A stretch of 64,000 nt of DNA, taken from contig DASYZR010000120.1 of NCBI GenBank assembly GCA_035945995.1, positions 927 to 64,926 of the forward strand. Reading direction: 5' to 3'. Source of the stretch: a bacterium. GTDB taxonomy: Bacteria; Sysuimicrobiota; Sysuimicrobiia; Sysuimicrobiales; Segetimicrobiaceae. Made by a program: the position numbers and the translations under genes. The notes under the pieces were generated by a model that was not told the DNA's origin, ran no database searches, and saw only the letters and a list, made by a program, of their open reading frames with translations. Shown in pieces: positions 7,422 through 28,060 of the stretch; the first letter of the stretch is position 1, and each line of letters opens with the position of its first letter.

Positions 7422-7451
7422 CCTCTGCGCCTCCCTGGTGTCTCGGACCGA

Positions 7452-8929: not shown

Positions 8930-9568
8930 TTACGTCTGGCTTGTCGCGTACCGGGCCCCCTGCGTTACGGCGGTCGGGCCCGTCGTGGACAGTACCGCAG
9001 CCGGTTGCGCGGCGAGGTCGGCCGCCATGCGCATCAGGCAGCAGTAGCGCGGCCGCTGATCGTCCCACAGTTGGTTGACGGCCATGCCGGCGACGCCGCC
9101 CGATAGTCCGGGGAACCGCCGCACCAGCTCGGCTTGGTACTCCGCCCGCGCATGCAGCGGCGACCCGCCGAGTTGCGCCGTGCGGCCATCGACGGAGCAC
9201 GCCCAGAGGAGTTTGAACCGCCGTCGCAGCGTGGGCGTCATGATCAGGTCTTCCGGGACGTGACCGTACGCGAACTCGTCGTCGAGGATATCGGCGACGT
9301 GTCCCAGCTCGTGACGGAGGAACCGCGTCAACCCGAGCGGATCGGCAAAGCGCGCCGGAAGAACGGTCAAACTAAGCGTGACGCCATCTGCGCCCACCTC
9401 CGCGCCCTCTTCGGCCGCGGCCCAGGCCGGGCTCAGGCGCACCTCGGTGAACCGGTCGGTGAGCACCGAGATGGCCTCCCGTACCGTCGCGTCAAATCTA
9501 CCGACTCCCTCGCGCCGTGCGAGCGCGCCCTCCAGCTCCGGACTGTAGCTGATCCGCGTTGCAGCCAT
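8930..9568 (-). CDS. hypothetical protein with an HExxH motif
   Basis: ATG 9568 follows GGGAGG. MAATRISYSPELEG...LTRFLRHELGHVADILDDEFAYGHVPEDL.... The track ORF N-terminus (9569..9799) runs through the intergenic palindrome and is rejected. Confidence 0.6.
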   Translation of the reverse strand: MAATRISYSPELEGALARREGVGRFDATVREAISVLTDRFTEVRLSPAWAAAEEGAEVGADGVTLSLTVLPARFADPLGLTRFLRHELGHVADILDDEFAYGHVPEDLIMTPTLRRRFKLLWACSVDGRTAQLGGSPLHARAEYQAELVRRFPGLSGGVAGMAVNQLWDDQRPRYCCLMRMAADLAAQPAAVLSTTGPTAVTQGARYATSQT

Positions 9569-9629
9569 GACCGCGCCTCCCAACGTTCGCGCAACGAGCG
9601 CCTCAGTCTCTACGATAGAGTCGGCGCGG

Positions 9630-9709
9630 GCGCGGCGGTAGAGCCGTTGGCCCCAAGACTGAGGGCCAAAGGTCCCGGGACCTTTGGCCCTTCGGTAGAG
9701 CCGCCGCGC
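9630..9709 (-). repeat. nested palindromic element: 9-bp outer stem enclosing a perfect 28-bp palindrome, with CGRTAGAGYCG direct repeats
   Basis: Outer stem GCGCGGCGG (9630..9638) pairs with CCGCCGCGC (9701..9709). Inner palindrome GGGCCAAAGGTCCCGGGACCTTTGGCCC at 9663..9690. CGGTAGAGCCG occurs at 9636..9646 and 9693..9703, with a degenerate copy at 9613..9623. Confidence 0.8.
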
Positions 9710-9716
9710 GCGGAGG

Positions 9717-10361
9717 CTAGGACAGTTTCTGCTTGGCGGCCAGCGCCGCGGCCGCCGCGCGCCGCTGCACGTGCAGCTTGCCGAGCAGGGTGCTGACATA
9801 GTTCTTGACCGTCTTCTCGCTCAGGTGCAGCGCGGCGGCGATCTCTCGATTGGTCTTCCCGTCCCCGACCAGCGCCAGCACGCGGCGCTCCTGTTCCGTC
9901 AGCGCCGCGACGGGATCGCCGCCGGTCCCGGCCAGGCGCCTGAAGCGCGCGAGGAGTTGATGGGTGACCGTGGGATCGAGCAGCGATTCCCCGGCGGCCA
10001 CGACCTCAATCGCATGGATCAGCTCCGCGCTGCGGGTCTGCTTCAGCAGGTAGCCCGACGCTCCGGCCATCACGGAGGCATCGACGGCTTCCTCATCCGC
10101 AAACGACGTGAGCATCAGCACGCGGGTGTCGGGTCGCGCCGACCGGATCTCCCTGCAGGCTTCGACGCCGCTTCCATCCGGGAGGCGCACGTCCATGATC
10201 ACCACGTCGGGCGCCGCCCGCGCCGCCTCCTCCACCGCGGCCGCCGCGGTCGAGGCTTCGCCGACGATCGTCATATTGGACCGGTGCCCCAGCAGCATCC
10301 GGAGCCCGGCCCGCACCACTTCGTGGTCATCCACCAGCAGGATGCGCAGCGGCTTCTCCAT
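9717..10361 (-). CDS. NarL/FixJ-family response regulator
   Basis: MEKPLRILLVDDHEVVRAGL...VVIMDVRLPDGSG...LTSF...GYLLK. HTH LTEQERRVLALVGDGKTNREIAAALHLSEKTVKNYVSTLL. GGAGG RBS. The start overlaps the kinase 3' end. Confidence 0.95.
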   Translation of the reverse strand: MEKPLRILLVDDHEVVRAGLRMLLGHRSNMTIVGEASTAAAAVEEAARAAPDVVIMDVRLPDGSGVEACREIRSARPDTRVLMLTSFADEEAVDASVMAGASGYLLKQTRSAELIHAIEVVAAGESLLDPTVTHQLLARFRRLAGTGGDPVAALTEQERRVLALVGDGKTNREIAAALHLSEKTVKNYVSTLLGKLHVQRRAAAAALAAKQKLS

Positions 10362-12835: not shown

Positions 12836-13840
12836 GTGAACGTCCAAGGCGCCCGCGTCCGCCGCCGGCTCGCACGCGGAGCGCAGGCCGTGCTGGCGTG
12901 CGCCATGGTCTTGACGTTGCCCGCATACGCCGGCGCTCAGGCCCCGCCCGACAGCACCGCATTGGCCGTCCCCGTCAGCGGGCGCATCGTGATTACCGAC
13001 ATGGGGAAGGCCCAAACGCATATCGTCCCCACACCGGTGGTCAGCAGCGGCAGCACCAGCCAGCGCGAGGATCTCGACATCAGCCTACCCGTGCTCGGGG
13101 TCCCGCTTCGCGGACCGGCGTCGCTGGTGATGGAAGCCCACATGACCTTGGTCGTCGTGAGCGCGACGACGACCGCGCAGGGCAAGGCGGAGCGCGTCGT
13201 CCTTCACGGGCCCGCGGGCGACGCGGTCGTGTCGCTCCTCATTAACCAACCCGTGCAAGGTATGGGAGGCTACGATCCGGCCGAGGCCACGGTCCACATC
13301 CGCGGCACCGGCGGCACCGGGATGTTCGAAGGCGTGCGAATCCAGGCCGATCTCAAGGGCGCCTTCAAACCCGCCGGCACGCTCTACCTCGGGTACCCGT
13401 CGGCCGACGCGGCGCTCGCGGCCGCCGGGCGCGGTCTCGCGCAGAATTCCGCCCTGACCGACCCGCAGCGGGCCGCGATCTTGAACCAGGTGCGACAAGC
13501 CCTCGCCGGCGCGACCGTCGACATCTTCCCGCCCGACCAAGGCGCCGGGCCGGCCGGCCGGCCCGGGAAGGCGCCGGCAAAAGCGATCGTGACGTCGGCG
13601 GTCCGGCCGGCCGGCCCGCAAACGCAGGTGATTGTGCGGATCGCCGTTCCTCAAGGCGACGCGCACCAACCCGTGAAGGTCCTCGCCGTTCAACCGGACG
13701 GAAGCCAGCGCACGGTCTATCTGGCCAACCACGCTCCGGGAGACGTCGTCTCCACGTCGGCCTCCGGGACGCCCCCGTTTGTGGTGCTGGTGTACGTGGC
13801 GGGCGAGATGGTACGGCAAATCGACGTCCCGGCCCCGTAG
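12836..13840 (+). CDS. secreted hypothetical protein
   Basis: GTG start. Signal peptide RRRLARGAQAVLACAMVLTLPAYAGAQA. 334 aa, with a Pro/Gly/Ala linker in the middle. No family recognised. Confidence 0.6.
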   Translation: MNVQGARVRRRLARGAQAVLACAMVLTLPAYAGAQAPPDSTALAVPVSGRIVITDMGKAQTHIVPTPVVSSGSTSQREDLDISLPVLGVPLRGPASLVMEAHMTLVVVSATTTAQGKAERVVLHGPAGDAVVSLLINQPVQGMGGYDPAEATVHIRGTGGTGMFEGVRIQADLKGAFKPAGTLYLGYPSADAALAAAGRGLAQNSALTDPQRAAILNQVRQALAGATVDIFPPDQGAGPAGRPGKAPAKAIVTSAVRPAGPQTQVIVRIAVPQGDAHQPVKVLAVQPDGSQRTVYLANHAPGDVVSTSASGTPPFVVLVYVAGEMVRQIDVPAP

Positions 13841-13895
13841 GCCTGTCCGCCCGGCGCGACAGGACGGCCGGCCTGCCCGGTGGAAGGTGGACGGC

Positions 13896-15116
13896 GTGAC
13901 TGACGCGGGATCGGCGCTCAGCGGCGTCCGGGTCGTGGACCTGACCCAATTCGAAGCCGGCACCTCCTGTACGGAGACGCTCGCCTGGCTGGGCGCCGAC
14001 GTCATCAAGGTGGAGCCGCCGGGGAAGGGTGAACAGGGCCGGGCGGCGTCGACCGATGTCCCCGGCCTCGACTCCTACTATTTCCTCCTCCTCAACGCCA
14101 ACAAACGCTCGGTCACCCTCAATCTCAAACACGCCGAGGGCAAGCGGCTGCTCGGCCGCCTGATCGAACGGGCGGACGTGTTCGTCGAGAACTTCGCTCC
14201 GGGCATCATCGAGCGGCTGGGGTTTGGCTACGATGACGTGCGGCGGCTCAATCCGCGCGCCGTCTACGCGCAGGTCAAGGGGTTCGCGCCGGACGGCCCC
14301 TTCGGAAATTATCCGGCATTCGACATGATCGCCCAGGCGGCCGGCGGCGCGATGAGCCTCACTGGGCGGCCGCAGGACCCGCCCCTCAAGCCCGGGCCGA
14401 CCATCGGCGACACCGGGGCCGGCCTTCATCTGGCGGTCGGGGTCCTCGCCGCGCTCGTCCAGCGGCAGCGGACCGGCCTCGGCCAGCGCGTCGAAGTGGC
14501 GATGCAGGAAGCGGTGATCAACTACTGCCGGATCTCGTTCGCCCGCCAGTTGCTCACGGGGCACGCGGCGGAGCGGTGGGGCAATCAGAGCCAGCTCGGC
14601 ATGACGGCGCCGAGCGGCATCTACCCGTGCACGCCGGGCGGCCCCAACGACTACGTGTTCATCTACACCAGCCGGGCGGCCAACCACCAGTGGGAGCGCC
14701 TGCTTGATGTGATCGGCCGTCCCGATCTGAGACACGATCCGCGGTTCGCGAACCCGGTGCAGCGGGCCGCCCATGCGGACGTGATCGACGAGGCGATCTC
14801 GGCGTGGACCCGCCAGTACACGAAGCGGGAGGCCATGGAGCGTCTGGGCACGGCCGGCGTGCCGGCCGGCGCGACCTTCGATACCTTGGAGTTGACCGGG
14901 GACGAGCACCTGAACCGCCGTGAGGCGATCGTGACCGTCGACCATCCGACGCGGGGACGCCTCAAGATGCCGGGCTGGCCGGTAAAGATGGAGCGCTCGC
15001 ACGTACCGGTCGCGGCGGCGCCCCTGCTGGGCCAGCACAATCGCGAGGTCTACGAGGAGCTTCTCGAACTGAGTGGCGAGGAACTCGCCCGTCTGCGCGA
15101 GCAGGGCGTCATCTAA
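13896..15116 (+). CDS. family III (CaiB/BaiF) CoA-transferase, formyl-CoA transferase (Frc/YfdW)-like
   Basis: GGAAGGTGG RBS then GTG 13896. GVRVVDLTQFEAGTSCTETLAWLGADVIKVEPPG, YFLLLNANKRS, VENFAPG and AQAAGGAMSLTG are collinear with E. coli YfdW as I recall it. Confidence 0.85.
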   Translation: MTDAGSALSGVRVVDLTQFEAGTSCTETLAWLGADVIKVEPPGKGEQGRAASTDVPGLDSYYFLLLNANKRSVTLNLKHAEGKRLLGRLIERADVFVENFAPGIIERLGFGYDDVRRLNPRAVYAQVKGFAPDGPFGNYPAFDMIAQAAGGAMSLTGRPQDPPLKPGPTIGDTGAGLHLAVGVLAALVQRQRTGLGQRVEVAMQEAVINYCRISFARQLLTGHAAERWGNQSQLGMTAPSGIYPCTPGGPNDYVFIYTSRAANHQWERLLDVIGRPDLRHDPRFANPVQRAAHADVIDEAISAWTRQYTKREAMERLGTAGVPAGATFDTLELTGDEHLNRREAIVTVDHPTRGRLKMPGWPVKMERSHVPVAAAPLLGQHNREVYEELLELSGEELARLREQGVI

Positions 15117-15128
15117 GGGGAGCGAACC

Positions 15129-16748
15129 GTGACCGGCAACGAGATCCTGGCGCGCTGCCTGAAAGACCACGGGGTGGACGTGATTTTCTTCCTCATGGGC
15201 GGCCCCATGATCGACTGCGAGAATGCCTGCCTGCGGCAGGAAATCCGGATGGTCGACGTGCGGCACGAGCAGGCGGCCGCGATGGCGGCCAACGCCTACA
15301 GCCGGCTCCGGCGGCGGCCGGCGGTCTGCATGGCCTGCAGCGGTCCTGGTTCGGCGAACCTCGTCACCGGGGTCGCCAACGCGTTCGTCGATTCCGCACC
15401 GGTGATCGCCATCGGCGGGTCGAGCCCAGTCTCCCATGCCGGGATGGGCGCCTTCCAGGAGACCGACCAGGTGGCGCTCTTTCGCCCGATCACCCGCTGG
15501 GCCGAGCGCTGCTACGATCCGCGGCGCATCCCCGAGCTGGTCGGCACCGCCTTCCGCCACGCCTTCGGCGCCCGGCCCGGACCGGTCTACCTGGACATGC
15601 CCGGGGACGTCCTCTACCGCGAAACACCAGATGATCAGGTCCGCAGGGTCCCGGCCGAGGCGGAGCGCCGGCGGCCGCCGGGAGACCCCCGGACCGTGGA
15701 GCGCGCCCTCGCGCTCATCGCCGCGTCCGAGCGCCCGATTCTCATCAGCGGCAGCGGCGTGCTGTGGGCGGAAGCGGAGGGCGAGTTGCGGTCGCTCGTG
15801 GAGCGGGCTCAAATTCCCTTTTATACGACGCCCCAGGGGCGCGGGGTCATTCCCGAGGATCATCCGCTCTGCTTCTTGGGGGCGCGCGGCGCGGCGTGGC
15901 GGGAGACCGACCTGATCGTCTTGGTGGGCACGCGCCAAAACTACGTGATCGGATACGCCCGGCCGCCGCGCGTGAATCCCGAGGCCAAGCTGATCCAGAT
16001 CGACATCGACCCCGAGGAGATCGGCCGCAACCGGCACGCGCACGCCGGCATCGCCGGAGACGCCAAAGCCGTCCTGGCGCAGATCCTCGACGCCGGCGGC
16101 GAGGCGTTCCACCCCGAACGGCGGACCGGCTGGGTCTCATACCTGGCAGGTCAGGACGAAGAAAGGCGGGCCGAGCAAGAGGAGCGGATGTCCTCGGACG
16201 CACGCCCCATCCATCCGCTCCGCCTCTGCAAGGAAGTCCGCGACTTCCTGCCGCGGGACGCGATCCTCTGCGTCGACGGGCAGGAAATCCTCAACTACGC
16301 CCGGGGCTCGATCCCCTTCTACGCCCCGCACAGCCTCAATTCGGGGCCGTACGGCTGCATGGGGGTGGGCCTGCCGTTCGGGCTGGGCGCGAAGGTGGCG
16401 ATGCCCGACAACCTCGTCGTGGTCCTCCACGGCGACGGCTCCTTCGGCCTCAACGCCATGGAGATGGACACGGCCCTCCGGCACCGCCTGCCGGTCGTCT
16501 GCGTGATCTCGAACAACGGCGGCTGGACCGCCACCGACCGATTCAAGACCGGCCGCGACCTCGGCTTCACGCGCTACGACCTCATGTTCGCGGCCGCCGG
16601 CTGCCACGGCGAGTACGTCGAGGACCCGGGCCTCATCAGGCCGGCCCTGGAACGGGCGGCGGCCAGCGGCAGGCCGGCCGTCGTCAATGTGGTCACCGAC
16701 CCTACCGCGCGGGCCCAGACCGCCCGTTTCGCCGATTACTCGACGTGA
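15129..16748 (+). CDS. thiamine-diphosphate enzyme of the oxalyl-CoA decarboxylase / 2-hydroxyacyl-CoA lyase / acetolactate-synthase-like family
   Basis: N-terminal TPP-PYR domain (VRHEQAAAMAANAY, SGPGSANLVTGVANA). C-terminal TPP-binding GDGSFGLNAMEMDT...NNGGW. AAGGGGAG RBS. Confidence 0.85.
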   Translation: MTGNEILARCLKDHGVDVIFFLMGGPMIDCENACLRQEIRMVDVRHEQAAAMAANAYSRLRRRPAVCMACSGPGSANLVTGVANAFVDSAPVIAIGGSSPVSHAGMGAFQETDQVALFRPITRWAERCYDPRRIPELVGTAFRHAFGARPGPVYLDMPGDVLYRETPDDQVRRVPAEAERRRPPGDPRTVERALALIAASERPILISGSGVLWAEAEGELRSLVERAQIPFYTTPQGRGVIPEDHPLCFLGARGAAWRETDLIVLVGTRQNYVIGYARPPRVNPEAKLIQIDIDPEEIGRNRHAHAGIAGDAKAVLAQILDAGGEAFHPERRTGWVSYLAGQDEERRAEQEERMSSDARPIHPLRLCKEVRDFLPRDAILCVDGQEILNYARGSIPFYAPHSLNSGPYGCMGVGLPFGLGAKVAMPDNLVVVLHGDGSFGLNAMEMDTALRHRLPVVCVISNNGGWTATDRFKTGRDLGFTRYDLMFAAAGCHGEYVEDPGLIRPALERAAASGRPAVVNVVTDPTARAQTARFADYST

Positions 16749-16971: not shown

Positions 16972-18711
16972 GTGGCGGCGGCCACCGCCATCATTCTCAC
17001 CGTGTTTGCCTTTATCGCGTTCCGGGCCGTTCAAGAGAGCACGTCGACCGTGCTGCAGCAGCGGCTGCAGGTCGGGACCGCGCTTGCCGACCGGATTGCC
17101 GCCACCCTTACGGGTTACCGAAACGAGCTGGAAGATCTCGGGTGGGAACTATCTCAGGAAAGTGCGCCCGAACGTCGCGCCGCGGTCCTCGAAGACTCCG
17201 AGTGGGCCCGCAGGTTTTCCGCGCTCGCGATCATTGGCCCGGACGGCCGCGTGATCTGGTCCCAGCCGGCATCGTGGTTTGCCTCGATGCGGCGAGGTCT
17301 CCCCCTGGCGGTTTTGACGGCAGCGTCCGGTGGCGCGGCCGTGCTTCCTCCCCTCGCCATAGCGCCGAACGTGCATCTGACGGCCCTCGCCGTCCCTCTC
17401 GCCGATCGCGGCGTTCTTCTGGGCGCCGTGGACCTCGAACGCCTTGCCCTCAGGGGCATCTTCGACGGCCCAGTGGGGGCATCGTTCGACTTCGAAATCA
17501 TGGACGCGCAGGGCATCGTCCGCGCGTCGGCCGTCCTCGCCGAGGTCGGGCGGCCGAGCGAGCATCTCCCCATCCTCGCCCCGGTGGTTCGGCCGGGAAG
17601 GCAGGCCATTGTGTACCACAACGTTCCACGGCGCCCGCACTACGTCGTGTACACACCGCTCGCCGAGTACCCGGGGTGGTCGGTCAACTTCGAGGAGCCC
17701 AGCGACGTTGTGCTCTCGCTGCCGCATGCGCTTCGCAACGGCCTGCTCGCGCTCGGAGCCGTTATCATGGTAGGGATGTCCACTCTGGCCTTTTTCGACA
17801 CAAAGGGCATGCTGCGGCCGCTCGCCCGGCTGCGGAAGGCGGCGGAGCATATCGCCGGCGGCAATCTGGACGACACCGTGGACGTCGAACGCCGCGACGA
17901 GGTCGGCGCGCTCGCGCAGGCTTTCGAGGCGATGCGGGTGAAGCTGCGCGCCTCGCGTGACGAGATCGCCGCCTGGAACCGCGAACTCGAGGACCGGGTC
18001 GCCAGCCGCACGCGGGAGCTCAGCGCGGCCCATGCCCTGCGCCGCCAGCTCCTCGAACGGATCGTGCTCGCCCACGAGGAAGAGCGCCGCCGAATTGCCC
18101 GAGAGCTGCACGACGAGATCGGCCAGGGCTTGACCGCCCTCGTGATGCAGCTCGGAACGGCGGAGGGCGCCCTGGAGCCCGACGCGGATGGGATCCGGCC
18201 GCAGCTCCAGGCCGTCCGCGAACAGACCTCCGAGATGATCGAGAACGTCCGGCGGCTCATGCTGGACCTGCGCCCGGCGGTCCTGGACGATCTCGGGCTC
18301 GTCCCGGCCATTCGCTGGTACGCCGAATCCCATCTGCCTGCGGCCGGCATCGACGCCCAAGTGTCGATCTCGGGCCTCGACGAGCACGAGCGGCTCCCGC
18401 GGCGCCTCGAACTGGTGGCGTTCCGTCTCGCGCAGGAGGCTGTCACGAACGTGATCCGCCACGCGCAGGCCAGGCGCGCCGTCATTTCCTTGGCGCGCGT
18501 GGCGGGCGGGCTCGAGATCTCGGTCGAGGACGACGGCCGCGGCTTCGACCCGGAGGCGGCGCCCCCCACCGGACGCCGCGGGTGGGGCCTCGCCGGGATG
18601 CGGGAGCGGGTCGCCCTGCTCGGCGGCACGCTGTCCGTCACGTCCCACCCGGGGTGCGGCACGCGCGTCGCGGCCAGGATCCCCGTCGAGGAGACGCCGG
18701 ATGCCGATTAG
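16972..18711 (+). CDS. sensor histidine kinase (periplasmic domain, HAMP, HisKA_3, HATPase_c); N-terminus uncertain
   Basis: HAMP LRKAAEHIAGGNLDDTVDVERRDEVGALAQAFEAM. H-box EEERRRIARELHDEIGQGLTAL. EAVTNVIRHA, DDGRGFD, GWGLAGMRERV. The upstream in-frame sequence RSLGLQARITLS looks like genuine N-terminus but has no canonical start codon. Confidence 0.9.
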   Translation: MAAATAIILTVFAFIAFRAVQESTSTVLQQRLQVGTALADRIAATLTGYRNELEDLGWELSQESAPERRAAVLEDSEWARRFSALAIIGPDGRVIWSQPASWFASMRRGLPLAVLTAASGGAAVLPPLAIAPNVHLTALAVPLADRGVLLGAVDLERLALRGIFDGPVGASFDFEIMDAQGIVRASAVLAEVGRPSEHLPILAPVVRPGRQAIVYHNVPRRPHYVVYTPLAEYPGWSVNFEEPSDVVLSLPHALRNGLLALGAVIMVGMSTLAFFDTKGMLRPLARLRKAAEHIAGGNLDDTVDVERRDEVGALAQAFEAMRVKLRASRDEIAAWNRELEDRVASRTRELSAAHALRRQLLERIVLAHEEERRRIARELHDEIGQGLTALVMQLGTAEGALEPDADGIRPQLQAVREQTSEMIENVRRLMLDLRPAVLDDLGLVPAIRWYAESHLPAAGIDAQVSISGLDEHERLPRRLELVAFRLAQEAVTNVIRHAQARRAVISLARVAGGLEISVEDDGRGFDPEAAPPTGRRGWGLAGMRERVALLGGTLSVTSHPGCGTRVAARIPVEETPDAD

Positions 18712-19363
18712 GGTGCTGGTCGCCGACGACCATCGGATCGTCCGCGCGGGAATCCGGTCGTTTCTGGAGGGCCAGCGGGACATCGCCGTCGTGGGGGAAG
18801 CCGGCACGGGCGAAGAGGCGTTGGCGATGGCCCAAACGCTGCGGCCGGACGTGACGGTCATGGATCTCAATATGCCGGGAATGGGCGGGCTCGAGGCCAT
18901 TCGCCGTATCAAAGGCGAAATCGCGGAGGTCCACGTCGTCGCGCTGACCATGCACGCGGACCAGCGGTTCTTTCTCGAGGCCCTCGCCGCCGGCGCCGAA
19001 GGCTACGTGCTCAAAGGCGCCGACCCGGCGCAGTTGCTGGCCGCGGTGCGCGCGGCGGCGGCGGGCACCGCGTATCTGACGCCGGAACAGGCAAAGCGCA
19101 TGCTCACCGAATACCGCCGCGCCGGCGAACGCCAGGCCGAGGGAGCCGGCGCCGGGCTCACCGCGCGCGAGCGCGAAGTGCTCACGCTCATCGCCGAGGG
19201 GCTGACCGGCAAGGCGATCGCCGAGCAGCTCTGCCTGAGCCCCAACACGGTCGAGCGCCACCGCACCAACATCATGAACAAGCTCGGCCTGCACAACCGC
19301 GCGGAGCTTGTGCGGTTCGCCATCCGCGAGCGGTTGATCGACGACGAGCCGCCGTCCCCGTAA
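18701..19363 (+). CDS. NarL/FixJ-family response regulator
   Basis: MPIRVLVADDHRIVRAG...VTVMDLNMPGMGG...LTMH...GYVLK. HTH LTAREREVLTLIAEGLTGKAIAEQLCLSPNTVERHRTNIMNKL. Confidence 0.95.
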   Translation: MPIRVLVADDHRIVRAGIRSFLEGQRDIAVVGEAGTGEEALAMAQTLRPDVTVMDLNMPGMGGLEAIRRIKGEIAEVHVVALTMHADQRFFLEALAAGAEGYVLKGADPAQLLAAVRAAAAGTAYLTPEQAKRMLTEYRRAGERQAEGAGAGLTAREREVLTLIAEGLTGKAIAEQLCLSPNTVERHRTNIMNKLGLHNRAELVRFAIRERLIDDEPPSP

Positions 19364-19384: not shown

Positions 19385-20422
19385 TCAACCCTGCGGCGGA
19401 GCGGGGTCACGGCGCAGGGCCAGCACCAGCCCGCACGCCAGCGCAAGCGCAAGCCCGGCGGCCACAATTCCGGGCAGGCGGTCGACAACCACCGGCAGTC
19501 CGTCGACGCGCACCGACACCGCGCCTCCGGCAGACACGGGGCCGCCGGACCACCGCCCGTAGTGGCGCCCGCGTTCCGCAACGATACCGCCGGCACGCAG
19601 TGCCGTACCGGACACCCGGATGTTCGGGTCCGCCAGGAGCTCCAGGTCGGTCGCGCCGTAGGGGAACTCCCACCCCAGCGTCGCCGACCGGGAGCGCGGC
19701 TCAACCCCGAACGCGTACGCGACCTGTGTGGCGCCGGGCATCACGGGGATCGCATCCGTAATCGTGCGGTCTCGAATGTGCGGATTGCGCCATCCGTCGA
19801 CGAACTCGACCGGCTCGGCCGCCCGCGGCGCCGGGGACACCAGCGGCAACGGGAACACGAGGGGATCCCGGTCCGTCACCGCCACGACTCGATCGGTCGC
19901 GTTGTGGAGCTGCTGGATCACGCTCACGCGAAGTGCGTCGTGCACGAGCTCGAGGACGACGAATACCACCGTCCCGTGCACGGCGGCCCGGTCGGGCGTA
20001 GCGGCGAATACGGACAGCGGCACGTTGCGCACGGGGGCGGCGGCGGTCAGGACGATCCGGGCGGTATACGGAACTCCGCCGTATTCCACGTGCACCACGA
20101 ACACCCGAGGTCCGCCGCCGACCGGTAGGCCGGGGAACGCGAAGCGGCCCTGAGCGTCAGTCGTCGTGACCCGCGTCGAGCTGAAGGCGGGCTCGACGAT
20201 CTCGAGACGCACCGCCCGCCCCGCCACCGGGTGCGCCGGAGCTGTTTGATCTGCCACGCTGCCCCGGATCTCGCCGACCATACCCGCGGCGTACGCGGTG
20301 GTGCCGGTGCCGAGCGCGGCACAGACGATGAACGCGGCCCAGGAGCGCGCGGCCCGGCTAGAACGCCCACCAGGTGAACAAGAGAAGGTTGTTGTTGTCG
20401 TTCGCGTTGCGTCCGAACCCAT
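19385..20422 (-). CDS. CarboxypepD_reg-like domain protein with signal peptide and C-terminal TM anchor
   Basis: RSWAAFIVCAALGTGTTAYA signal. GEIRGSVADQ...GRAVRLEIV...TTTDAQGRFAFPGLPVGG...VVHVEYGGVPY matches the carboxypeptidase-regulatory fold pattern. C-terminal GIVAAGLALALACGLVLAL. The only canonical start (ATG 20422) overlaps the upstream gene by 65 nt. Confidence 0.7.
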   Translation of the reverse strand: MGSDATRTTTTTFSCSPGGRSSRAARSWAAFIVCAALGTGTTAYAAGMVGEIRGSVADQTAPAHPVAGRAVRLEIVEPAFSSTRVTTTDAQGRFAFPGLPVGGGPRVFVVHVEYGGVPYTARIVLTAAAPVRNVPLSVFAATPDRAAVHGTVVFVVLELVHDALRVSVIQQLHNATDRVVAVTDRDPLVFPLPLVSPAPRAAEPVEFVDGWRNPHIRDRTITDAIPVMPGATQVAYAFGVEPRSRSATLGWEFPYGATDLELLADPNIRVSGTALRAGGIVAERGRHYGRWSGGPVSAGGAVSVRVDGLPVVVDRLPGIVAAGLALALACGLVLALRRDPAPPQG

Positions 20423-21818
20423 CGTAATTGGTCGTCCCGCCGTTGAACTTCAGATAATAAGTATACTGCAGTGCGATCCGCACATTGAGCCATGGGTAGC
20501 CCGCGTGGGTGGTGTCGTTGCCAAAGGGCGTCCAATCGATTTGCGCAACGATCGCCTGCGAATTCGGGTATCCGTTTGCGCTCCCGGTCAGCGACGCGGG
20601 CGCGTACAGCGTCGGGTCCGCACTTCCAAAGGTGCTGGCATAGGCCAGCGTGACTCCATAGGTGTTGCGCCAGTAATAGGCCGCGGCGATGCGGAACTGC
20701 GTCAGATCGTTGGAAAGATTGCTGGACAGGCCCGCCGCGTTGGACGCCGTCAGTGTTTGCGTCTCAAACAGGATATTGCTGGTAATCGCGAGGGTGTCCG
20801 GCCCGAAGGTATGCTGGTACGTGGCGTCGAGACCCCAATCGATGTACCGATTTTGGTCCGACGGGGTTACGGCGCCCGGGACTTGCTGGAGCGGGATGTC
20901 CATGTACACCCCGCCGACTTCGAGGAAGTTGCTGCCCCACGAGTGCTGGTAGGCGAGCCGGAAATACGGGGCGGTGCCGGAAATGACTCCCAGGCTCGAC
21001 GGACTGATGTTCATGGTGCTGAGCGTACTCGCGCTCCATGATTGGTAGAGCCCGCCTTCGATATAGAGCTTGTTGTCGTACAAGGCCGACAGACTCAGGC
21101 CATATACCGTCGTACCGAGGGCACTGATCGCCGGGCTCGCGCTCGGCGCAGGCCCGATGAACGGCGTCAAATACGGGAACTGAAAGCCATTGTACAGCGA
21201 GTTGTAGGGATCGCTCCCCGACGGCGTATTCGTGAGATCGAACCCCAGCAAGAGCGAGTGATTCCCGATCGTCAACGGTTTCGTGAGCCGAAGATCCGAC
21301 GTGGCTTCTACCGCGGTGACCGATCCCCCGGGGACGCCGCTGAACCCAATTTGTTCAAATCCGCCGATGCCAAACTTGCCGTTGAACGAATACCCGCCCG
21401 TGATAAAGATGCCGCTGCCGCTCCCCAGGAGATTGAAAAAGTTATTCGTGCCGTACCCTGCGGGCGCCGCCGGCAGGGCCTTCGCGTCGATTTGGAGGCT
21501 CGGTGTAACGAGGATGTTGATCGGAATATTCGCCCAGGGGCCGGTGCCGCCACGCCAGGTATATCCGTTCGCTCTGAAAGCGATACCGAACGGCGTCAGT
21601 TGCGGCCCGAACCCGCCGATGTGGCAGGCGCTGCACGGTGCCCCTGTTTGTCCGGCGAAACTCGGCAGGGCATCGGCGCGCGGAGTCCACCAGAACGCGA
21701 TGGCGAGCGCCAGGATACCGAAGACCGCGGCGCGCAGGCCGCCAACCACACGCACCACGTCGATGGAAAGCGCGCCCCGCGTCCTCAGGCACAAGCCACG
21801 TCCCGACCTGCTCGCCAC
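20358..21818 (-). CDS. fused monoheme cytochrome c / outer-membrane beta-barrel porin, Cyc2-like
   Basis: Signal peptide GLRAAVFGILALAIAFWWTPRADA, then LPSFAGQTGAPCSACH (single CxxCH), then FGPQLTPFGIAFRANGY. About 430 aa rich in G/Y/T/S/N with alternating hydrophobicity. C-terminal LLLFTWWAF (terminal Phe OMP signature). Start options: GTG 21818 (GAGGGGGGA RBS), ATG 21887, GTG 21758. Confidence 0.75.
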   Translation of the reverse strand: MASRSGRGLCLRTRGALSIDVVRVVGGLRAAVFGILALAIAFWWTPRADALPSFAGQTGAPCSACHIGGFGPQLTPFGIAFRANGYTWRGGTGPWANIPINILVTPSLQIDAKALPAAPAGYGTNNFFNLLGSGSGIFITGGYSFNGKFGIGGFEQIGFSGVPGGSVTAVEATSDLRLTKPLTIGNHSLLLGFDLTNTPSGSDPYNSLYNGFQFPYLTPFIGPAPSASPAISALGTTVYGLSLSALYDNKLYIEGGLYQSWSASTLSTMNISPSSLGVISGTAPYFRLAYQHSWGSNFLEVGGVYMDIPLQQVPGAVTPSDQNRYIDWGLDATYQHTFGPDTLAITSNILFETQTLTASNAAGLSSNLSNDLTQFRIAAAYYWRNTYGVTLAYASTFGSADPTLYAPASLTGSANGYPNSQAIVAQIDWTPFGNDTTHAGYPWLNVRIALQYTYYLKFNGGTTNYDGFGRNANDNNNLLLFTWWAF

Positions 21819-21962
21819 CCCTGTTCCCCCCTCTTCTCGTCGTGCTCTCACGACCGCGCGCTCTTTTCTCGCCCCGGTCCGCGGCACGCCGAGCCCCGTT
21901 CTGAATTTCCGATTTTCGTCCCTGGACTCCTCCGGCCGGCGGGACCCGTCCGGTCTCGGCCG

Positions 21963-22421
21963 CTAGGGAGGCGTCACGATTAATCGTCCGAACATCGTCG
22001 CGTGCCGCACCCCGCAGTAGGTCGTGCACATGTACAGGTATGTGCCGGGTTTGGGAGCGGTCACCGTCAGCTCGATCGATTTCCCCGGAATCAGTTCGGT
22101 GACTTGCGCGTCCAGACCCAGGATTTTGAACCCATGCACGACGTCCTCCGACTCGAGCCGGATCCGGAGCGGCACCCCCGCGGTCGCGTGCAGAACGTTC
22201 GGCGCGTACTGCCACTGGGTCGCGTGGACCACGACCACGTGACGATCCATCCACCGGCCGTACGCGAACACCGTGGCCGGCCCCACCACGAGCACCGCCG
22301 CGGCGACGCCGAGCGCGGCCAGTTCACCCGCTCCGACCGCGCGGACGCGCGCCGCCGCCGCCCGCACCGCGGCCAGCGTGCGTCGTCCCCGTGTCGATAG
22401 GGCGTTCACGTGGGTTCGCAT
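21963..22421 (-). CDS. membrane-anchored CuA-type cupredoxin (cytochrome oxidase subunit II-like domain, no partner subunit I)
   Basis: N-terminal TM LAALGVAAAVLVVGPATVFA. DVVHGF ... CTTYCGVRHATM fits H...C-x3-C-G-x2-H-x2-M, the binuclear CuA ligand pattern. AGGAGG RBS. Confidence 0.8.
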   Translation of the reverse strand: MRTHVNALSTRGRRTLAAVRAAAARVRAVGAGELAALGVAAAVLVVGPATVFAYGRWMDRHVVVVHATQWQYAPNVLHATAGVPLRIRLESEDVVHGFKILGLDAQVTELIPGKSIELTVTAPKPGTYLYMCTTYCGVRHATMFGRLIVTPP

Positions 22422-22431
22422 CTTGGGCCTC

Positions 22432-23910
22432 CTATCCCACGAACAGCCAGAGGAATGCCGCCGTAATCCCGCCGAGCAGCACGATCTGCGGCATCACCGC
22501 GCGGGCCGCCGCGGCCGGCGCGGGAAACGTCTGCCGGGCGATCTTCCAGGCCACGTCGAGCGAATACACGAACCCGAAGAGGAGGGCCGCGGCCTGCAGC
22601 GCCGGCAGCCAGCTCGTGAGGATCGGCGTCCAGGCGAAATGCGCGGTCCCGAAGAGATTCCAGCCCCAGCCGAAGGGGTCGGAGATGATCCGCAGCACGT
22701 ACGACCCGTTCGGCAGCAGGATCGCGAAGCTGAACCCGATCCACGCCAGCAGCCCGATCGGCACCAGGTGATAGGCGAAGTTCGTGAACACGCGGCGAAA
22801 CGGCACGGTGCGCCCCGCAAGCCGCCAGGACAACCAGGCGGAGGCGCCGTGCAGCGCCGGCAGCACGCCGGCCAGGACCGTGACGAGCCCCGCGGCAAAC
22901 AACGCCCACCCGCCGAGCGACCGGAGGTTCGCCCAGTCCTTGAGCGTGCCCCACGGCCCCATCATCGTCGCCGAGTAGACGGCCGCCGCGCCGAGCATGA
23001 TGAACGCCTTCCACGACTCGTCGAGACCGCGGTGCGACTCCACCAGGAGATCCGTCCCGAACGGGCGGACGTACAGACCCATGTTGTCATGCGAGCAGCA
23101 GCGGAAACATTCGAGGCAGAGCCCGCAGTAGGTGTTGCGTTTCAGGCTGGTCGGCTGCTCGAGCCACGGGCAGCCGTGGCCCGCGGCGCTGCCGAGGATG
23201 CACTCCTTGGACTTGTGGCCGACGCAGACCGGCGTGCTCTTCGGCCGGATCTCCAGCGCCGCGAAATTAGCGTACAGGCCGAGGAAGCCCCCGACCGGAC
23301 AGAGGTAGCGGCAGAACGTCCGCCGCTCGTAGACGAGGAAAAGGCCCGTGCCCAGGACCATGATCGAGCCCAGGAGCGCCACGGTCGCCCACGGCCGCGT
23401 CGTGATGATCCCGCTGAACGCCGCGACGCCCAGAAACACGCCGTTCACGAGCCACATGCTGCGCAGCTTCTTGGGCCATTTCAGCGACAGGCCGAGCGGC
23501 CGGCGCCAGCTGCGCCGGACGAGGGAGAGGCGCTGCAGCCACTCGCCCAGCACGGGCAGGGGGCACATCCCGCACCAGAGGCGGGACGCGAACGGGACGA
23601 GCACCAGCATCAGCGCCGACCACCACAGGATCCAAATGAACACGATCGCGATGTTCGCGTTGCCCACAGGCGTGCCGACGATGCCGGCGGCGAGGATGAC
23701 CAGGAACAGGAAGAGGTTCAGCGCGGTCGGCAGGAAGGTCGTCCAGCGGCTTCGCAGCAGGCGGCGCAGCCACGGCGCCTTCGTCAGCTCGAGACGCGCG
23801 TCCACGGGCACGAGGCCGAGGAAGACGTCGCGCGGTCGGGCGTTGCCGGCCGCGGTTCCGCCGGCCACGGCCGTCGCGGTGTCCGCCGCCACCCGATCCA
23901 CCGCACTCAT
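22432..23910 (-). CDS. polytopic 4Fe-4S (NapH/MauN/CcoG-like polyferredoxin) membrane protein with an extra C-terminal 5-TM domain
   Basis: WCGMCP and FCRYLCPVGG membrane Cys motifs. Soluble Cys-rich loop CVGHKSKEC...GHGCPW...YCGLCLECFRCC. About 10 TM helices. ATG 23910 overlaps the upstream stop (ATGA). The track ORF N-terminal 53 aa are rejected. Confidence 0.8.
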   Translation of the reverse strand: MSAVDRVAADTATAVAGGTAAGNARPRDVFLGLVPVDARLELTKAPWLRRLLRSRWTTFLPTALNLFLFLVILAAGIVGTPVGNANIAIVFIWILWWSALMLVLVPFASRLWCGMCPLPVLGEWLQRLSLVRRSWRRPLGLSLKWPKKLRSMWLVNGVFLGVAAFSGIITTRPWATVALLGSIMVLGTGLFLVYERRTFCRYLCPVGGFLGLYANFAALEIRPKSTPVCVGHKSKECILGSAAGHGCPWLEQPTSLKRNTYCGLCLECFRCCSHDNMGLYVRPFGTDLLVESHRGLDESWKAFIMLGAAAVYSATMMGPWGTLKDWANLRSLGGWALFAAGLVTVLAGVLPALHGASAWLSWRLAGRTVPFRRVFTNFAYHLVPIGLLAWIGFSFAILLPNGSYVLRIISDPFGWGWNLFGTAHFAWTPILTSWLPALQAAALLFGFVYSLDVAWKIARQTFPAPAAAARAVMPQIVLLGGITAAFLWLFVG

Positions 23911-24368
23911 GGCTTCCGTCCCTCCTCCCACGCGGCGTAGAGCACCGTGGCGCCGATCGTGCCGAGCGCCAGCAGACCCAGCCGCAGCGTGACATTGGGC
24001 TGAACGCGCAGCCAGCCGATCATGTACGGATGGAACGGTCCGCACGTGACCGCGCACCGGAACATCCATCGTCCGCTCCGCGTCGCCACGAACCGCGCGG
24101 TGACCGTTTGGCCGGGCACCACGGTTTCGGTGACGTTGTAGCCGTCGAGGTAGAATCCATGGGTCACGTCGTCGGCCTTGATGATCAGGGTGACCGGGTC
24201 ACCCTCGTTCACGGTCACGATGCCCGGCGTATACCGCCACTGCGACGCGGTGAGCGTAATCGTCCGCGGGTGCGGTAGCGGCGACGCGCCCAGGCGCACC
24301 ACGAAGACGCCGGCCGCGAGGAGCACCGCGCCCGCCACCACGACCAGATATCGTCGGCCTCTTATCAT
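23907..24368 (-). CDS. CuA-type cupredoxin with N- and C-terminal TM helices
   Basis: ATG 24368 follows GGGAGG. YLVVVAGAVLLAAGVFVV. DVTHGF ... CAVTCGPFHPYM (C-x3-C-G-x2-H-x2-M). C-terminal LRLGLLALGTIGATVLYAAW. Confidence 0.8.
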   Translation of the reverse strand: MIRGRRYLVVVAGAVLLAAGVFVVRLGASPLPHPRTITLTASQWRYTPGIVTVNEGDPVTLIIKADDVTHGFYLDGYNVTETVVPGQTVTARFVATRSGRWMFRCAVTCGPFHPYMIGWLRVQPNVTLRLGLLALGTIGATVLYAAWEEGRKP

Positions 24369-24392
24369 GGTCGCCTCCCGTCGGCCGGATGC

Positions 24393-24419
24393 GCGAGGCC
24401 CGGCCTGCGCCGGGCTCGC
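24393..24419 (-). promoter_or_regulatory. intercistronic GC-rich stem-loop between the blue-copper gene and the rest of the cluster
   Basis: GCGAGGCCCGGC-CTGC-GCCGGGCTCGC: 11-12 bp stem with one bulge, 4-nt loop. It lies in the 73-nt gap 24369..24441. No U tract. Confidence 0.45.
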
Positions 24420-24441
24420 GTCGTCGTTCGGCTGCCAACCC

Positions 24442-24978
24442 TTAGTTCGCACCCGCGACGAGCGACGCGGCGCCCGCCGGAGCGACACTCGGTGCCTGGG
24501 CCGTGGGGGAGACGACCAGTTTGTCCCACATCCCGGCGACTGCGTGTCCCGAGACGCCGCAGATCAACTCGTACGTCCCGGCCTTGCTCGCCTCGAAGGT
24601 GAATGTCTCCTTGGCGCCCTTGGGGAGTCCCGTTGCGGGATCTTTGGTCGTCGCACCCGAGAATACCGGGGCGGCCGACGGCGCCGGCTGCTGGTTCGCG
24701 CCGGAGGGCAACACCGCCAGGCTGTGGGGGAGGTCGTTGGCGTTCACAAAGTGCACGACGACCCGCCAGCCGAGGGGCACGGTAATCGTCATCCCGCCGC
24801 GCTGGTACCCGTTGAAATCGAAGCCCCCGCCGGCCGCGTTCTTACCCGCCACGATCGACAGTTCAACCGTGTGCGCCGCCGCGGCCGAGCCCGCCGTCCC
24901 CGGCACCATTGCCGCGAGGCCCCCGAGGATCCCGACCGCGAGCGCCCGCCACGCCGCTCTTGTCAGGTTGGATGTCAT
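24442..24978 (-). CDS. sulfocyanin-like type-1 blue copper protein
   Basis: ATG 24978 follows GGAGGTGGGAG. Signal/anchor AWRALAVGILGGLAAMV. Ligands LPHSL ... ELICGVSGHAVAGMW, close to the sulfocyanin C-G-x-P-G-H-x3-G-M-W pattern as I recall it. Confidence 0.75.
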   Translation of the reverse strand: MTSNLTRAAWRALAVGILGGLAAMVPGTAGSAAAAHTVELSIVAGKNAAGGGFDFNGYQRGGMTITVPLGWRVVVHFVNANDLPHSLAVLPSGANQQPAPSAAPVFSGATTKDPATGLPKGAKETFTFEASKAGTYELICGVSGHAVAGMWDKLVVSPTAQAPSVAPAGAASLVAGAN

Positions 24979-27388: not shown

Positions 27389-27988
27389 CTACTTCTTCTT
27401 CCTCATGACGTCGCAGAGCATGTCCGAGTGGATGTTCAGACCGATATTTGTCATGTTGTAAATGTGCTCGCTGGCGACAAGCCACACGATCTCGCAGATT
27501 TGGCGGTCGGAATAATAGGCGGACATGCGGGCAAAAGTGTTCGGGTTCACCTTTTTGTCCCTTGTCAACTCCGTCACATAGTTCAGAGCGGCACGTTCTG
27601 CATCGGTAAAGAGTGAGCTGGTCTGATAGTGCTCCAGGGCATCGAATTTGGCTTCATTCATCGCCGCTTTGATCACGGCCGCGCGGGCAGCATCGATGCA
27701 GAAAAGGCAGACGTTGATACGCGCCACCTGTACACGGATGAGCACCGCCGTTTCCGGCGGCAGCGACAGCTTCTTATCCAGCGCGCTGACCTTACCGTAG
27801 AACACGCCGAATGCAAGCGGCAATCGGGCGGAATACACCGTCAGCGGTGTAAGCACTTTGCCAAACTGCCGGCGTGTAAAGTAGAACACCAGCTTCATCA
27901 TCACCCCCTTGGGGTTTTCGATGGGAGGAAGAAATGTGCCCTGGGCGTCGGGAACTGCTGGCACTGGGTTTTTCACACTTGCTTGCAT
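27389..27988 (-). CDS. carboxymuconolactone decarboxylase (AhpD-like) family protein, compositionally atypical
   Basis: ATG 27988 follows GGAAGGAG. ...RVQVARINVCLFCIDAARAA...ALNYVTELT.... Three 60-nt lines counted by hand gave 47, 55 and 52% G+C, against about 72% next door. Confidence 0.8.
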   Translation of the reverse strand: MQASVKNPVPAVPDAQGTFLPPIENPKGVMMKLVFYFTRRQFGKVLTPLTVYSARLPLAFGVFYGKVSALDKKLSLPPETAVLIRVQVARINVCLFCIDAARAAVIKAAMNEAKFDALEHYQTSSLFTDAERAALNYVTELTRDKKVNPNTFARMSAYYSDRQICEIVWLVASEHIYNMTNIGLNIHSDMLCDVMRKKK

Positions 27989-28033
27989 GGCTGTCTCCTT
28001 CCACAATGCGTTCATATCCGCTCGACTTCCCAT

Positions 28034-28060
28034 TGTCACATCGATTGGGCTTCATCCGTC
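28034..28060 (+). promoter_or_regulatory. ECF41-type promoter motif TGTCACA-N16-CGTC upstream of the sigma factor gene
   Basis: TGTCACA at 28034..28040, 16-nt spacer, CGTC at 28057..28060. It lies 30 nt before GTG 28090. A 9-bp inverted repeat ATCCGTCAT/ATGACGGAT (28054..28075) overlaps the -10 element. Confidence 0.55.

Follow-up and report, generated by a model that had tools for sequence, protein, structure and literature searches.

Here, we describe a gene cluster in a 64-kb stretch of DNA (contig DASYZR010000120.1; the whole stretch is referred to below as the window; ~70% GC) in which a trio of genes, encoding a NapH-like polyferredoxin (C) between two CuA cupredoxins (B and D), is inserted between the gene for a rusticyanin-like copper protein (A) and a cyc2-like gene for a cytochrome-porin (E). 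This insertion is new; all the parts come from known families, and the trio itself had been noted earlier. We consider it on balance probable that the products are wired from Cyc2 through the cupredoxin and the trio to the quinone pool. The evidence comprises the gene set and its cofactor motifs, the barrel fold of E, conserved synteny, natural B-C fusions, the recurrence of the trio in other genomes, and its link to a two-component system. The genes concerned, which include a less conserved sixth gene (F) and a convergent regulator pair, are the following (TM, transmembrane).

A: 24442..24978, (−) strand, type-1 copper protein of the sulfocyanin/rusticyanin family, membrane-anchored or secreted, 178 amino acids
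B: 23907..24368, (−) strand, CuA cupredoxin with an N-terminal and a C-terminal TM helix, partner of C, 153 amino acids
C: 22432..23910, (−) strand, NapH-like polyferredoxin, 9 TM helices, 492 amino acids
D: 21963..22421, (−) strand, second CuA cupredoxin with one N-terminal TM helix, 152 amino acids
E: 20358..21818, (−) strand, Cyc2-family fused monoheme cytochrome-porin, 486 amino acids
F: 19385..20422, (−) strand, secreted C-tail-anchored CarboxypepD_reg-like protein, 345 amino acids
Response regulator: 18701..19363, (+) strand, NarL/GerE type, stop codon 21 nt from that of F
Sensor kinase: 16972..18711, (+) strand, two TM helices, a periplasmic domain of ~230 amino acids, and HAMP, HisKA_3, and HATPase domains (Pfam), convergent with the operon

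The six co-directional open reading frames (ORFs) on the (−) strand lie where a sequence-only reading of this DNA had placed them, and their coordinates and domains were all confirmed, as was its parts list by Pfam and motif scans of A to F. The same reading had described the genes as joined by strong ribosome-binding sites (RBSs) or 4-nt overlaps and as one six-gene unit. Shine-Dalgarno-like sequences are indeed present for A (GGAGGTGGGAG), B (GGGAGG), C (GGGAGGAGGG), D (TAGGAGG), and E (GAGGGGGG), but only B and C overlap by 4 nt (ATGA), and the RBS of F is weak. Likewise, A to E plus the regulators recur as a group, but F is not a conserved member of it. The intergenic gaps are 73 nt (A-B), 10 nt (C-D), and 144 nt (D-E). 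F starts at an ATG 65 nt within E, which is the best available start because F homologues retain an N-terminal signal-like segment and no other in-frame start precedes that segment. A promoter scan found no sigma-70-like sites, and the minus-strand terminator-like hairpins all lay inside gene C, with terminator matches in the scan as a whole at chance level; since the DNA is 70% GC, the promoter and terminator scan is uninformative. An Rfam scan of the window gave no matches. A to E are best explained as one operon under the control of the adjacent NarL-type two-component system.

Cyc2 proteins have been defined by the motifs AXPXFAR[Q/K][T/Y], CXXCH, and PXL, a length of at least 365 amino acids, and a 16-strand porin resembling OprO/OprP (Keffer et al. 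2021, PMC8406198). E is the only one of the six proteins with a CxxCH motif: CSACH occurs once, at residue 62, with ALPSFAGQT ahead of it and PQL behind it. Its hydrophobic segment (residues 24–42), followed by ADA–LP, was judged by eye to be a signal peptide; the C terminus reads WWAF, and no Pfam or NCBIfam family matched. The AlphaFold2 (AF2) model of E contains ~16 long strands, with a predicted local distance difference test score of 75–90 in the barrel and a poorly modelled N-terminal heme domain. Foldseek matched it with a probability of 1.0 to 16-strand porins, including OprO (4RJW) and OprP (2O4V). Judged by its motifs and modelled fold, E is a Cyc2-family cytochrome-porin that has every feature of this definition except for an R-to-G replacement in ALPSFAGQT, for which the strict filter of PMC8406198 would reject it. 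Across the aligned E family, no substitution occurs at A1, P, F, Q, T, G, C, C, or H, whereas R, Q, T, L, and G are all found at the R position. The CSACH motif and the modelled ~16-strand barrel thus agree with the earlier proposal that the porin protein binds heme and forms a barrel. Fe(II) oxidase activity is shared by all three Cyc2-family proteins that have been tested biochemically (PMC8406198).

Relatives of E at 55–76% identity come from soil metagenome-assembled genomes (MAGs) and contigs only. A wider Cyc2-like family (at least 593 species loci, ~40% identity) occurs mostly in Acetobacteraceae and other Alphaproteobacteria, and partner genes were not found at these loci by tblastn. 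The GC content of the cyc2-like gene is 0.613 (0.78 at third codon positions, GC3), compared with 0.67–0.71 (GC3 of 0.82–0.94) for its operon partners; a CMD-family ORF at 27389–28039 is lower still (0.544; GC3 of 0.70). The low GC of these two genes may point to later acquisition, and the Asn/Tyr/Thr-rich composition of the barrel may be a partial cause in E.

A belongs to the SoxE family (Pfam SoxE, 78.5 bits; cut-off, 21) but is an equivalog of neither sulfocyanin nor rusticyanin, because it scores below both NCBIfam equivalog cut-offs (TIGR03094, 80.8 versus 168.4; TIGR03095, 34 versus 146.7). It has a single hydrophobic N-terminal segment and the copper ligand set H...C-x4-H-x4-M; specifically, PHS...CGVSGHAVAGM aligns with His85-Ser86 and Cys138/His143/Met148 of rusticyanin, and the closest solved relative is the rusticyanin of Acidithiobacillus ferrooxidans (E = 2e-8). 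B and D both exceed the cut-offs of Cupredoxin_1 and COX2 (PF00116; 30.4 and 30.7 bits, respectively, for COX2; cut-off, 22), and each carries a CuA site, C-x3-C-x3-H-x2-M (CAVTCGPFHPYM in B and CTTYCGVRHATM in D). The best solved relative of both is the CuA domain of the Thermus ba3 oxidase, aligned over the full length (E = 1.5e-15 for B and 5e-17 for D). On the CoxB equivalog model TIGR02866, B and D score 38.7 and 54.1, respectively, far below the cut-off of 147.7. The copper sites that the sequence-only reading had proposed for the cupredoxins are supported by their ligands, with complete CuA sets in B and D and a type-1 set in A. The predicted topology of B places the N terminus inside, the cupredoxin domain outside, and the C terminus inside, which is consistent with the natural fusions of B to C described below. 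Residues 10–20 of D (STRGRRTLAAV), ahead of its TM helix, resemble a twin-arginine motif, and by this feature D might be exported by the twin-arginine translocation (Tat) pathway, like NosZ.

C scores above the cut-off of Fer4_5 (31.6 bits) and has 12 Cys, of which 11 are invariant across phyla (RxWCxxCP, RxFCxYxCPVxGF, C-x7-C-x9-CPW, and CGxCxECxxxC). It falls far below the NapH models (TIGR02163, 22.9 versus a cut-off of 213; PRK09477, 12.2 versus 234) and outside NapH/MauN, having 9 TM helices rather than 4 and no NapG-like gene at the locus. What it shares with NapH is the Fer4_5 core alone: CxxCP, CxxxCP, and a predicted cytoplasmic iron-sulfur (FeS) domain. The AF2 model of C (predicted template modelling score, 0.77) contains nine long helices. 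Application of the positive-inside rule to these helices, counted by hand, predicts that the N terminus, both Cx2-3CP motifs, and the FeS domain are cytoplasmic, and that a strikingly conserved loop, SDPFGWGWNLFGT, in the C-terminal 5-TM extension is periplasmic. Conserved heme ligands were not seen in the membrane part in either the cross-phyla alignment or the AF2 model. Since a Foldseek search with this model returned no fold match in the PDB (best E = 0.28), the C-terminal 5-TM domain is not assignable to a known quinone-binding fold. The dual Sec/Tat type of polyferredoxin (PMC5449189) was considered for C and rejected, as its FeS domain is internal (TM4-TM5) and cytoplasmic by the positive-inside rule.

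The arrangement is shared by relatives of the window (related loci carry L numbers; 16 informative loci of the close clade of E were compared). The long form, A-B-C-D-E with the convergent response regulator and kinase, occurs in the window, L005, L012, and L014, and in incomplete but consistent form in L006, L175, and L177; this order recurs at 68–75% protein identity in several contigs. Orthologues of the kinase (71–76% identical) occupy the same position in L005, L012, L014, L175, and L177, and orthologues of the response regulator (85–91% identical) are convergent with cyc2 in these five loci and in L006. In 10 of the 16 informative loci, A immediately precedes either B-C-D-E or the Cyc2-like gene. 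A short form without the trio (A-E or A-E-F) is present in L001, L003, L171, L172, L173, and L183, and one genome, SMAG_U8773, has both forms. L178 has another gene order, namely Cyc2, a two-domain cupredoxin, B, and C. In L184 and L185, a Cyc2 orthologue (61–69% identity) adjoins genes for a Rieske protein, a cytochrome b/c fusion, and a monoheme cytochrome c, with no trio, and a cytochrome b gene lies 2 kb from Cyc2 in L174. A type-1 cupredoxin gene also stands 5′ of the trio without Cyc2 in L009 (plastocyanin-like; Symbiobacteriaceae) and in L093 (double cupredoxin), and L093 combines the trio with a two-component system. Absences in related loci refer to tblastn at E ≤ 1e-5 on contigs that are often truncated, so divergent cupredoxins could have been missed.

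By gene content, Cyc2 and the blue copper protein are a tight pair, and the cupredoxin, trio, and two-component system are a second conserved unit. The two have been joined at least two times, in different orders, and a bc-type complex can fill the position of the trio. They are separable, because each occurs without the other. Because the units were joined at least twice and a Rieske/cytochrome b complex replaces the trio in L184 and L185, the trio is probably the quinone-pool junction for the Cyc2/cupredoxin pair.

The trio is far more widespread than this lineage. C has more than 2,250 homologous clusters, and the trio polyferredoxin is found, in syntenic context, at no fewer than 534 loci in one-genome-per-species data. 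Its hosts include Symbiobacteriaceae and other Bacillota, an Armatimonadota-labelled MAG (83% identity), Chloroflexota, Planctomycetota (including a Brocadiaceae MAG), Omnitrophota, Nitrospinota, Acidobacteriota, Candidatus Hakubella, and four Candidatus Methanoperedens genomes (50–51% identity over nearly the full length). Clustering of all ORFs within 8 kb of the polyferredoxin at 85 loci revealed an ORF with a CuA motif directly 5′ and another directly 3′ of it in at least 70 of them, and the full CuA ligand set of B and D is kept across phyla. Among the best 120 homologues of C, at least 12 have a CuA domain fused to the N terminus.

The recurrent neighbours at these 85 loci were a NarL-type response regulator with a GerE-type helix-turn-helix (40 loci) and a HisKA_3 kinase (39), both inspected by eye in sequence; a type-II DMSO-reductase-family alpha subunit of ~1,150 amino acids (25; sequence inspection); a Fer4_11 beta subunit (28), a NarJ-like chaperone (26), a PCYCGC protein (PF13798; 24), and a DUF1573 protein (20), all by Pfam; a copper P-type ATPase (9; sequence inspection); and SCO1/SenC (6; Pfam). 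The trio therefore flanks periplasmic type-II DMSO-reductase-family enzymes in ~30% of the loci. Moreover, the upstream CuA ORF, ~1.4 kb 5′ of the polyferredoxin, reaches 436–470 amino acids in several Planctomycetota, including the Brocadiaceae MAG (L011, L115, L117, L120, L121, L128, L139, and L143). The L011 ORF fuses the CuA domain to the EB_dh-type heme-b gamma subunit of the molybdoenzyme encoded next to it; for the other seven loci, we infer the same fusion from like length and position. The flanking molybdoenzymes and the fusion of a gamma subunit to a CuA domain indicate that the trio is an electron-transfer partner of periplasmic redox enzymes.

Chloroflexota loci among L129–L170 often combine the trio with PCYCGC-motif and DUF1573 proteins with no molybdoenzyme nearby, and their downstream CuA protein of ~335–345 amino acids implies an extra domain. 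One polyferredoxin homologue (P0183) has an N-terminal thioredoxin-like (AhpC-TSA/Thioredoxin_8) domain ahead of its CuA domain, and in Symbiobacteriaceae L009 the trio is flanked by a thioredoxin-family gene and a gene for a DsbD_TM protein (4131–4661 and 9879–11141). Such fusions and neighbours suggest dedicated thiol-redox support for CuA maturation.

The HisKA_3/NarL pair had been put forward as the nearest candidate regulator, and its conservation in the closest relatives and at ~40 of the 85 trio loci across phyla strengthens that candidacy. We also searched the window and the trio loci, with 10 kb of flank on each side, for COX1 signatures of the GHPEVY or WAHHMF type, using regular expressions. 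None was found in the 64-kb window; among 183 sequences (2.63 Mb), only L168 and, doubtfully, L112 gave a match, i.e., 1–2 of the 85 trio loci. Pfam scans that covered most of the larger ORFs elsewhere in the window identified transporters, dehydrogenases, and amidohydrolases, and no oxidase subunit I. The sequence-only reading had seen no coxA in the cluster and had allowed that a coxA-type gene regularly partnering these CoxB-like genes elsewhere would make it an oxidase-assembly locus; no such partner emerged. Among cyc2 loci, a cluster that lacks an oxidase is nothing unusual.

F probably has an accessory periplasmic role, linked to the biogenesis or anchoring of c-type cytochromes, rather than one as an electron carrier. 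It matches CarboxypepD_reg at 29 bits, below the 32.3 cut-off, has a C-terminal TM helix (residues 318–336) and a signal-like N-terminal segment conserved in homologues, and shows no redox-cofactor motif. It belongs to a small family of 48 clusters, all from this lineage, with an invariant His within a TAPAHPV motif. F directly follows Cyc2 in short-form loci L003 and L172 and lies 1.7 kb 3′ of Cyc2 in L015; it was not found in the other long-form loci L005, L012, and L014. Homologues with ~50% identity directly follow ccmC/ccmE/ccmF and precede genes for a dihaem cytochrome c and cytochrome b. Specifically, in L181 (3267–7942) and L182 (2895–8098), the F homologue lies between ccmC/E/F (also ccmB in L182) and genes for a dihaem cytochrome c and two cytochromes b, and the family may be a lineage-specific Ccm-associated protein or cytochrome-complex subunit. 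Because of its ccm and cytochrome c neighbours, patchy occurrence, and lack of a redox-cofactor motif, we treat F as accessory and not as a component of the wire.

The comparative data fit the earlier proposal of an outer-membrane entry or exit point for electrons, connected through copper proteins to a quinone-reactive polyferredoxin, with each electron-transfer step, the quinone reactivity, the direction of flow, and the substrate being what we infer from them. As a tentative choice, slightly favoured over quinol-driven export, electrons would enter by oxidation of Fe(II) at the heme of E in the outer membrane. They would then pass to the rusticyanin-like A in the periplasm and from A to the CuA centres of D and/or B. 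B and D would sit on the periplasmic face of C, with B-C-D forming the junction with the quinone pool, while "downhill" electrons from A would reach an oxidase encoded elsewhere. The role of B-C-D would then resemble that of the Rieske/cytochrome b complex beside cyc2 in relatives and of the "uphill" branch in A. ferrooxidans. A quinone site near the periplasmic face would be the simplest route, because predictions put the CuA domains in the periplasm and the FeS clusters in the cytoplasm, and the membrane part has no conserved heme ligands. Fe(II) oxidation is suggested by the homology of E and A to the first two carriers of the A. ferrooxidans chain, by the activity of every Cyc2 protein tested so far (PMC8406198), and by the bc-type neighbours of cyc2 in relatives, which mirror the pet/rus logic.

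Several points weigh against this polarity and wiring. CuA and type-1 copper centres are typically of high potential, and reduction of quinone from them would be uphill, with no energy-coupling mechanism visible in C. The FeS clusters of C and the CuA domains are predicted on opposite sides of the membrane, so that electron transfer would have to pass via quinone or another route. Oxidase, RuBisCO, or other autotrophy markers were not found among the window ORFs scanned, and the neighbouring genes look organotrophic. The clade of E has G in place of the motif R, and its nearest named relatives are Acetobacteraceae Cyc2-like proteins of putative function. The A-E pair occurs without the trio (the six short-form loci), and the trio with a two-component system occurs without Cyc2 (L093). 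In most contexts, the trio accompanies probable reductases, such as the nitrate reductase of Methanoperedens (PMC4683180), and NapH-type proteins are regarded as quinol dehydrogenases (PMC5449189, PMC8238504).

The same wiring could run outward, which we consider somewhat unlikely: electrons from the oxidation of quinol by C would reach A through the CuA centres of B and D and leave via E to an extracellular high-potential acceptor, such as acidic or complexed Fe(III) or Mn(III/IV) oxides, the operon thereby being a self-contained terminal respiratory branch. The operon would then be complete, with a donor module, carriers, and an outlet, and an oxidase would be unneeded. Thermodynamically, electrons run downhill from quinol to CuA, anaerobic respiratory branches are commonly under NarL-type regulators, the trio adjoins periplasmic molybdoenzymes in mostly anaerobic lineages, and the closest named Cyc2-like relatives are in acidophilic Acetobacteraceae, a group in which Fe(III) reduction is known. 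NapH-family proteins are seen as quinol dehydrogenases or as outward electron-transfer apparatus (PMC5449189, PMC8238504), and the trio belongs to a highly transcribed nitrate-reductase operon in Methanoperedens (PMC4683180); for A. ferrooxidans, there is a published proposal that the Cyc2/rusticyanin chain can run in reverse. However, the tested Cyc2-family proteins all oxidise Fe(II), and none is known to reduce an extracellular acceptor (PMC8406198). High-potential copper would also rule out low-potential Fe(III) oxides at neutral pH and so narrow the range of acceptors, and some molybdoenzyme partners of the trio are Nxr-like (Brocadiaceae locus), where electrons would flow inward.

It is improbable that the cluster consists of two independent units side by side, an A-E(-F) iron module working with generic respiratory complexes and a separate B-C-D with its two-component system, adjacent through shared regulation or chance insertion. 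Each does occur alone (B-C-D with the regulators in L093 and many phyla), SMAG_U8773 holds both the short and the long form, and the GC3 of cyc2 (0.78, against 0.84–0.94 for its neighbours) hints at separate ancestry. Yet B-C-D sits inside A...E with short gaps and RBSs, the same order persists at 68–75% identity in several contigs, L178 joins the units differently (E, cupredoxin, B, C), cyc2 in L184 and L185 has a bc-type complex beside it where the trio would be, and a type-1 cupredoxin gene normally precedes the trio (L009 and L093). Still less probable is a locus for copper homeostasis or for metallation of copper proteins such as A, in which C would act like CcoG, which is a cupric reductase, B and D would be periplasmic copper binders, and the two-component system would sense copper. 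C does have a Fer4_5 architecture in common with CcoG-type proteins, and the trio neighbours copper P-type ATPases (9 of 85), SCO1/SenC (6 of 85), PCYCGC proteins (24 of 85), and thioredoxin/DsbD-type proteins or fusions; such neighbours are, however, expected for CuA-site maturation. B and D retain the full electron-transfer CuA ligand set across phyla, and the trio is found within respiratory molybdoenzyme operons, with gamma-subunit-CuA fusions, and is highly transcribed with nar genes (PMC4683180). Finally, B and D are most like the CuA domains of oxidase subunit II and could be spare CoxB-type subunits for a heme-copper oxidase subunit I encoded elsewhere; we rejected such an accessory or assembly role as highly improbable on the COX1 signature scan (1–2 of 85 trio loci, none in the window) and the CoxB scores far under the equivalog cut-off, and B homologues are fused to the polyferredoxin, not to oxidase subunits.

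The locus can be compared with several characterised or described systems. Like the rus operon of A. ferrooxidans (cyc2-cyc1-orf-coxBACD-rus), the locus has a Cyc2-type porin next to a rusticyanin-family protein and CuA-type cupredoxins; unlike it, there is no Cyc1-type dihaem cytochrome, CoxA/C/D, or HiPIP, and it is a NapH-like FeS membrane protein, not an oxidase, that lies between the CuA proteins. Of the full rus set (cyc2, cyc1, coxBACD, and rus), the locus thus holds cyc2-like, rus-like, and coxB-like genes only. The Rieske/cytochrome b complex beside cyc2 in L184 and L185 is similar to the petI bc1 "uphill" branch. The host, in contrast to A. ferrooxidans, is a high-GC uncultured soil lineage, with no evidence of acidophily or autotrophy seen in the window. 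SoxM of the Sulfolobales (SoxEFGHIM) is a supercomplex in which a sulfocyanin-family protein carries electrons between a quinol-oxidising module and a CuA subunit, and it offers a precedent for electron transfer from type-1 copper to CuA; SoxM has a Rieske/cytochrome b and a heme-copper catalytic subunit, whereas the window operon encodes neither.

The closest match to the trio is the Methanoperedens nar operon (NarG, NarH, NarJ, Orf7, HCO II, NapH, and HCO II), whose NapH has 9 TM helices, including five extra C-terminal ones, and whose genes are all highly transcribed, with an unusual membrane-bound complex proposed (Arshad et al. 2015, PMC4683180). A 2026 paper gives this operon only as a "non-canonical nitrate reductase." The order is the same (CuA, 9-TM protein with five extra C-terminal helices, CuA), and the polyferredoxins are 50–51% identical. 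The Methanoperedens trio, in an archaeal host, is coupled to NarGH, NarJ, and Orf7 (heme b), whereas the window trio, in a bacterial host, has genes for a Cyc2-like porin-cytochrome and a rusticyanin-like cupredoxin as its partners. Méheust et al. (PMC8238504) regard NapH-like proteins as modular transmembrane electron-transfer devices for extracytoplasmic oxidoreductases. NapGH and NosR/PceC-type systems share with C a polytopic membrane protein, Cx3CP and cytoplasmic [4Fe-4S] motifs, and this modular link to extracytoplasmic enzymes (PMC8238504); the window locus differs in lacking NapG and a flavinylated FMN-binding domain, in its five additional TM helices, and in having two CuA cupredoxins in place of the flavinylated domain of NosR/PceC. 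The view that the architecture had no known precedent therefore stands in part: the trio has already been described bioinformatically (PMC4683180) and is present in at least 534 species, but the literature searched did not yield the combination of Cyc2, a rusticyanin-like protein, and CuA-NapH-like-CuA, nor the trio as a portable module associated with a two-component system and with interchangeable partners (molybdoenzymes or Cyc2).

The rest of the window contains a second redox island on the (−) strand (4373–12630), which is regulated and includes a cytochrome b and a cupredoxin.

GAF/HisKA_3 kinase: 10327–12630, (−) strand
NarL-type regulator: 9717–10532, (−) strand
Multi-TM HisKA_3 kinase: 7452–8798, (−) strand
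Secreted two-domain cupredoxin: 6687–7421, (−) strand
Membrane protein of 156 amino acids: 6207–6677, (−) strand
Cytochrome b (Pfam Cytochrome_B): 5176–6270, (−) strand
GerE regulator: 4373–5005, (−) strand

This island is syntenic with L183, where SoxE-Cyc2 fills the cupredoxin/cytochrome b slot between the regulators, and homologues of its double cupredoxin lie 5′ of the trio in L093 and L178. A lone Rieske [2Fe-2S] protein of 182 amino acids is encoded at 55500–56048 on the (−) strand; the three ORFs adjoining it have no Pfam match, and the one cytochrome b gene that turned up in the window lies 50 kb from it. The window ORFs that were scanned included no molybdopterin or Fer4_11 genes. The sensor kinase gene is adjoined, on the (+) strand at 13779–16748, by genes for a CoA-transferase family III protein and a thiamine-pyrophosphate-dependent enzyme, an frc/oxc-like pair (oxalate or formyl-CoA type). 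The corresponding regions in relatives are 14123–16962 of L005 and 7868–11205 of L003; since L005 shares this arrangement, synteny with the closest relative extends over the whole neighbourhood. Taken gene by gene, the nearest labelled relatives disagree in their labels (Armatimonadota, Firmicutes, and Symbiobacteriaceae).

Outside A. ferrooxidans, the electron route from Cyc2 to the quinone pool is poorly defined, and this locus offers a specific, testable set of carriers. The proposed carriers are copper centres and one heme only, and the operon encodes neither a bc1 complex nor a soluble cytochrome c. The HCO II-NapH-HCO II arrangement, which the literature searched had placed in nitrate-reductase operons only, gains a second independent type of partner, and the trio as a portable quinone-pool junction is argued for by the fusions, by the conservation of the regulator pair, and by its apparent replacement with a Rieske/cytochrome b complex. 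Possibly, although we would not assume it, the trio is a widespread copper-dependent quinol:cupredoxin oxidoreductase, an alternative to bc1 or alternative complex III for high-potential periplasmic partners, with the Cyc2 chain perhaps running outward. If so, the trio would be hard-wired through the rusticyanin-like protein to Cyc2 in an extracellular electron-transfer chain almost free of cytochromes, and, were the chain outward, a Cyc2-family protein would be a terminal reductase for extracellular Fe(III) or Mn. Confirmation would establish a new class of respiratory complex for Chloroflexota, Planctomycetota (including the Brocadiaceae MAG), Omnitrophota, Bacillota, and Methanoperedens of soil, sediment, and subsurface, and surveys that use cyc2 as a marker would have to allow for different downstream wiring and possibly reverse flow.

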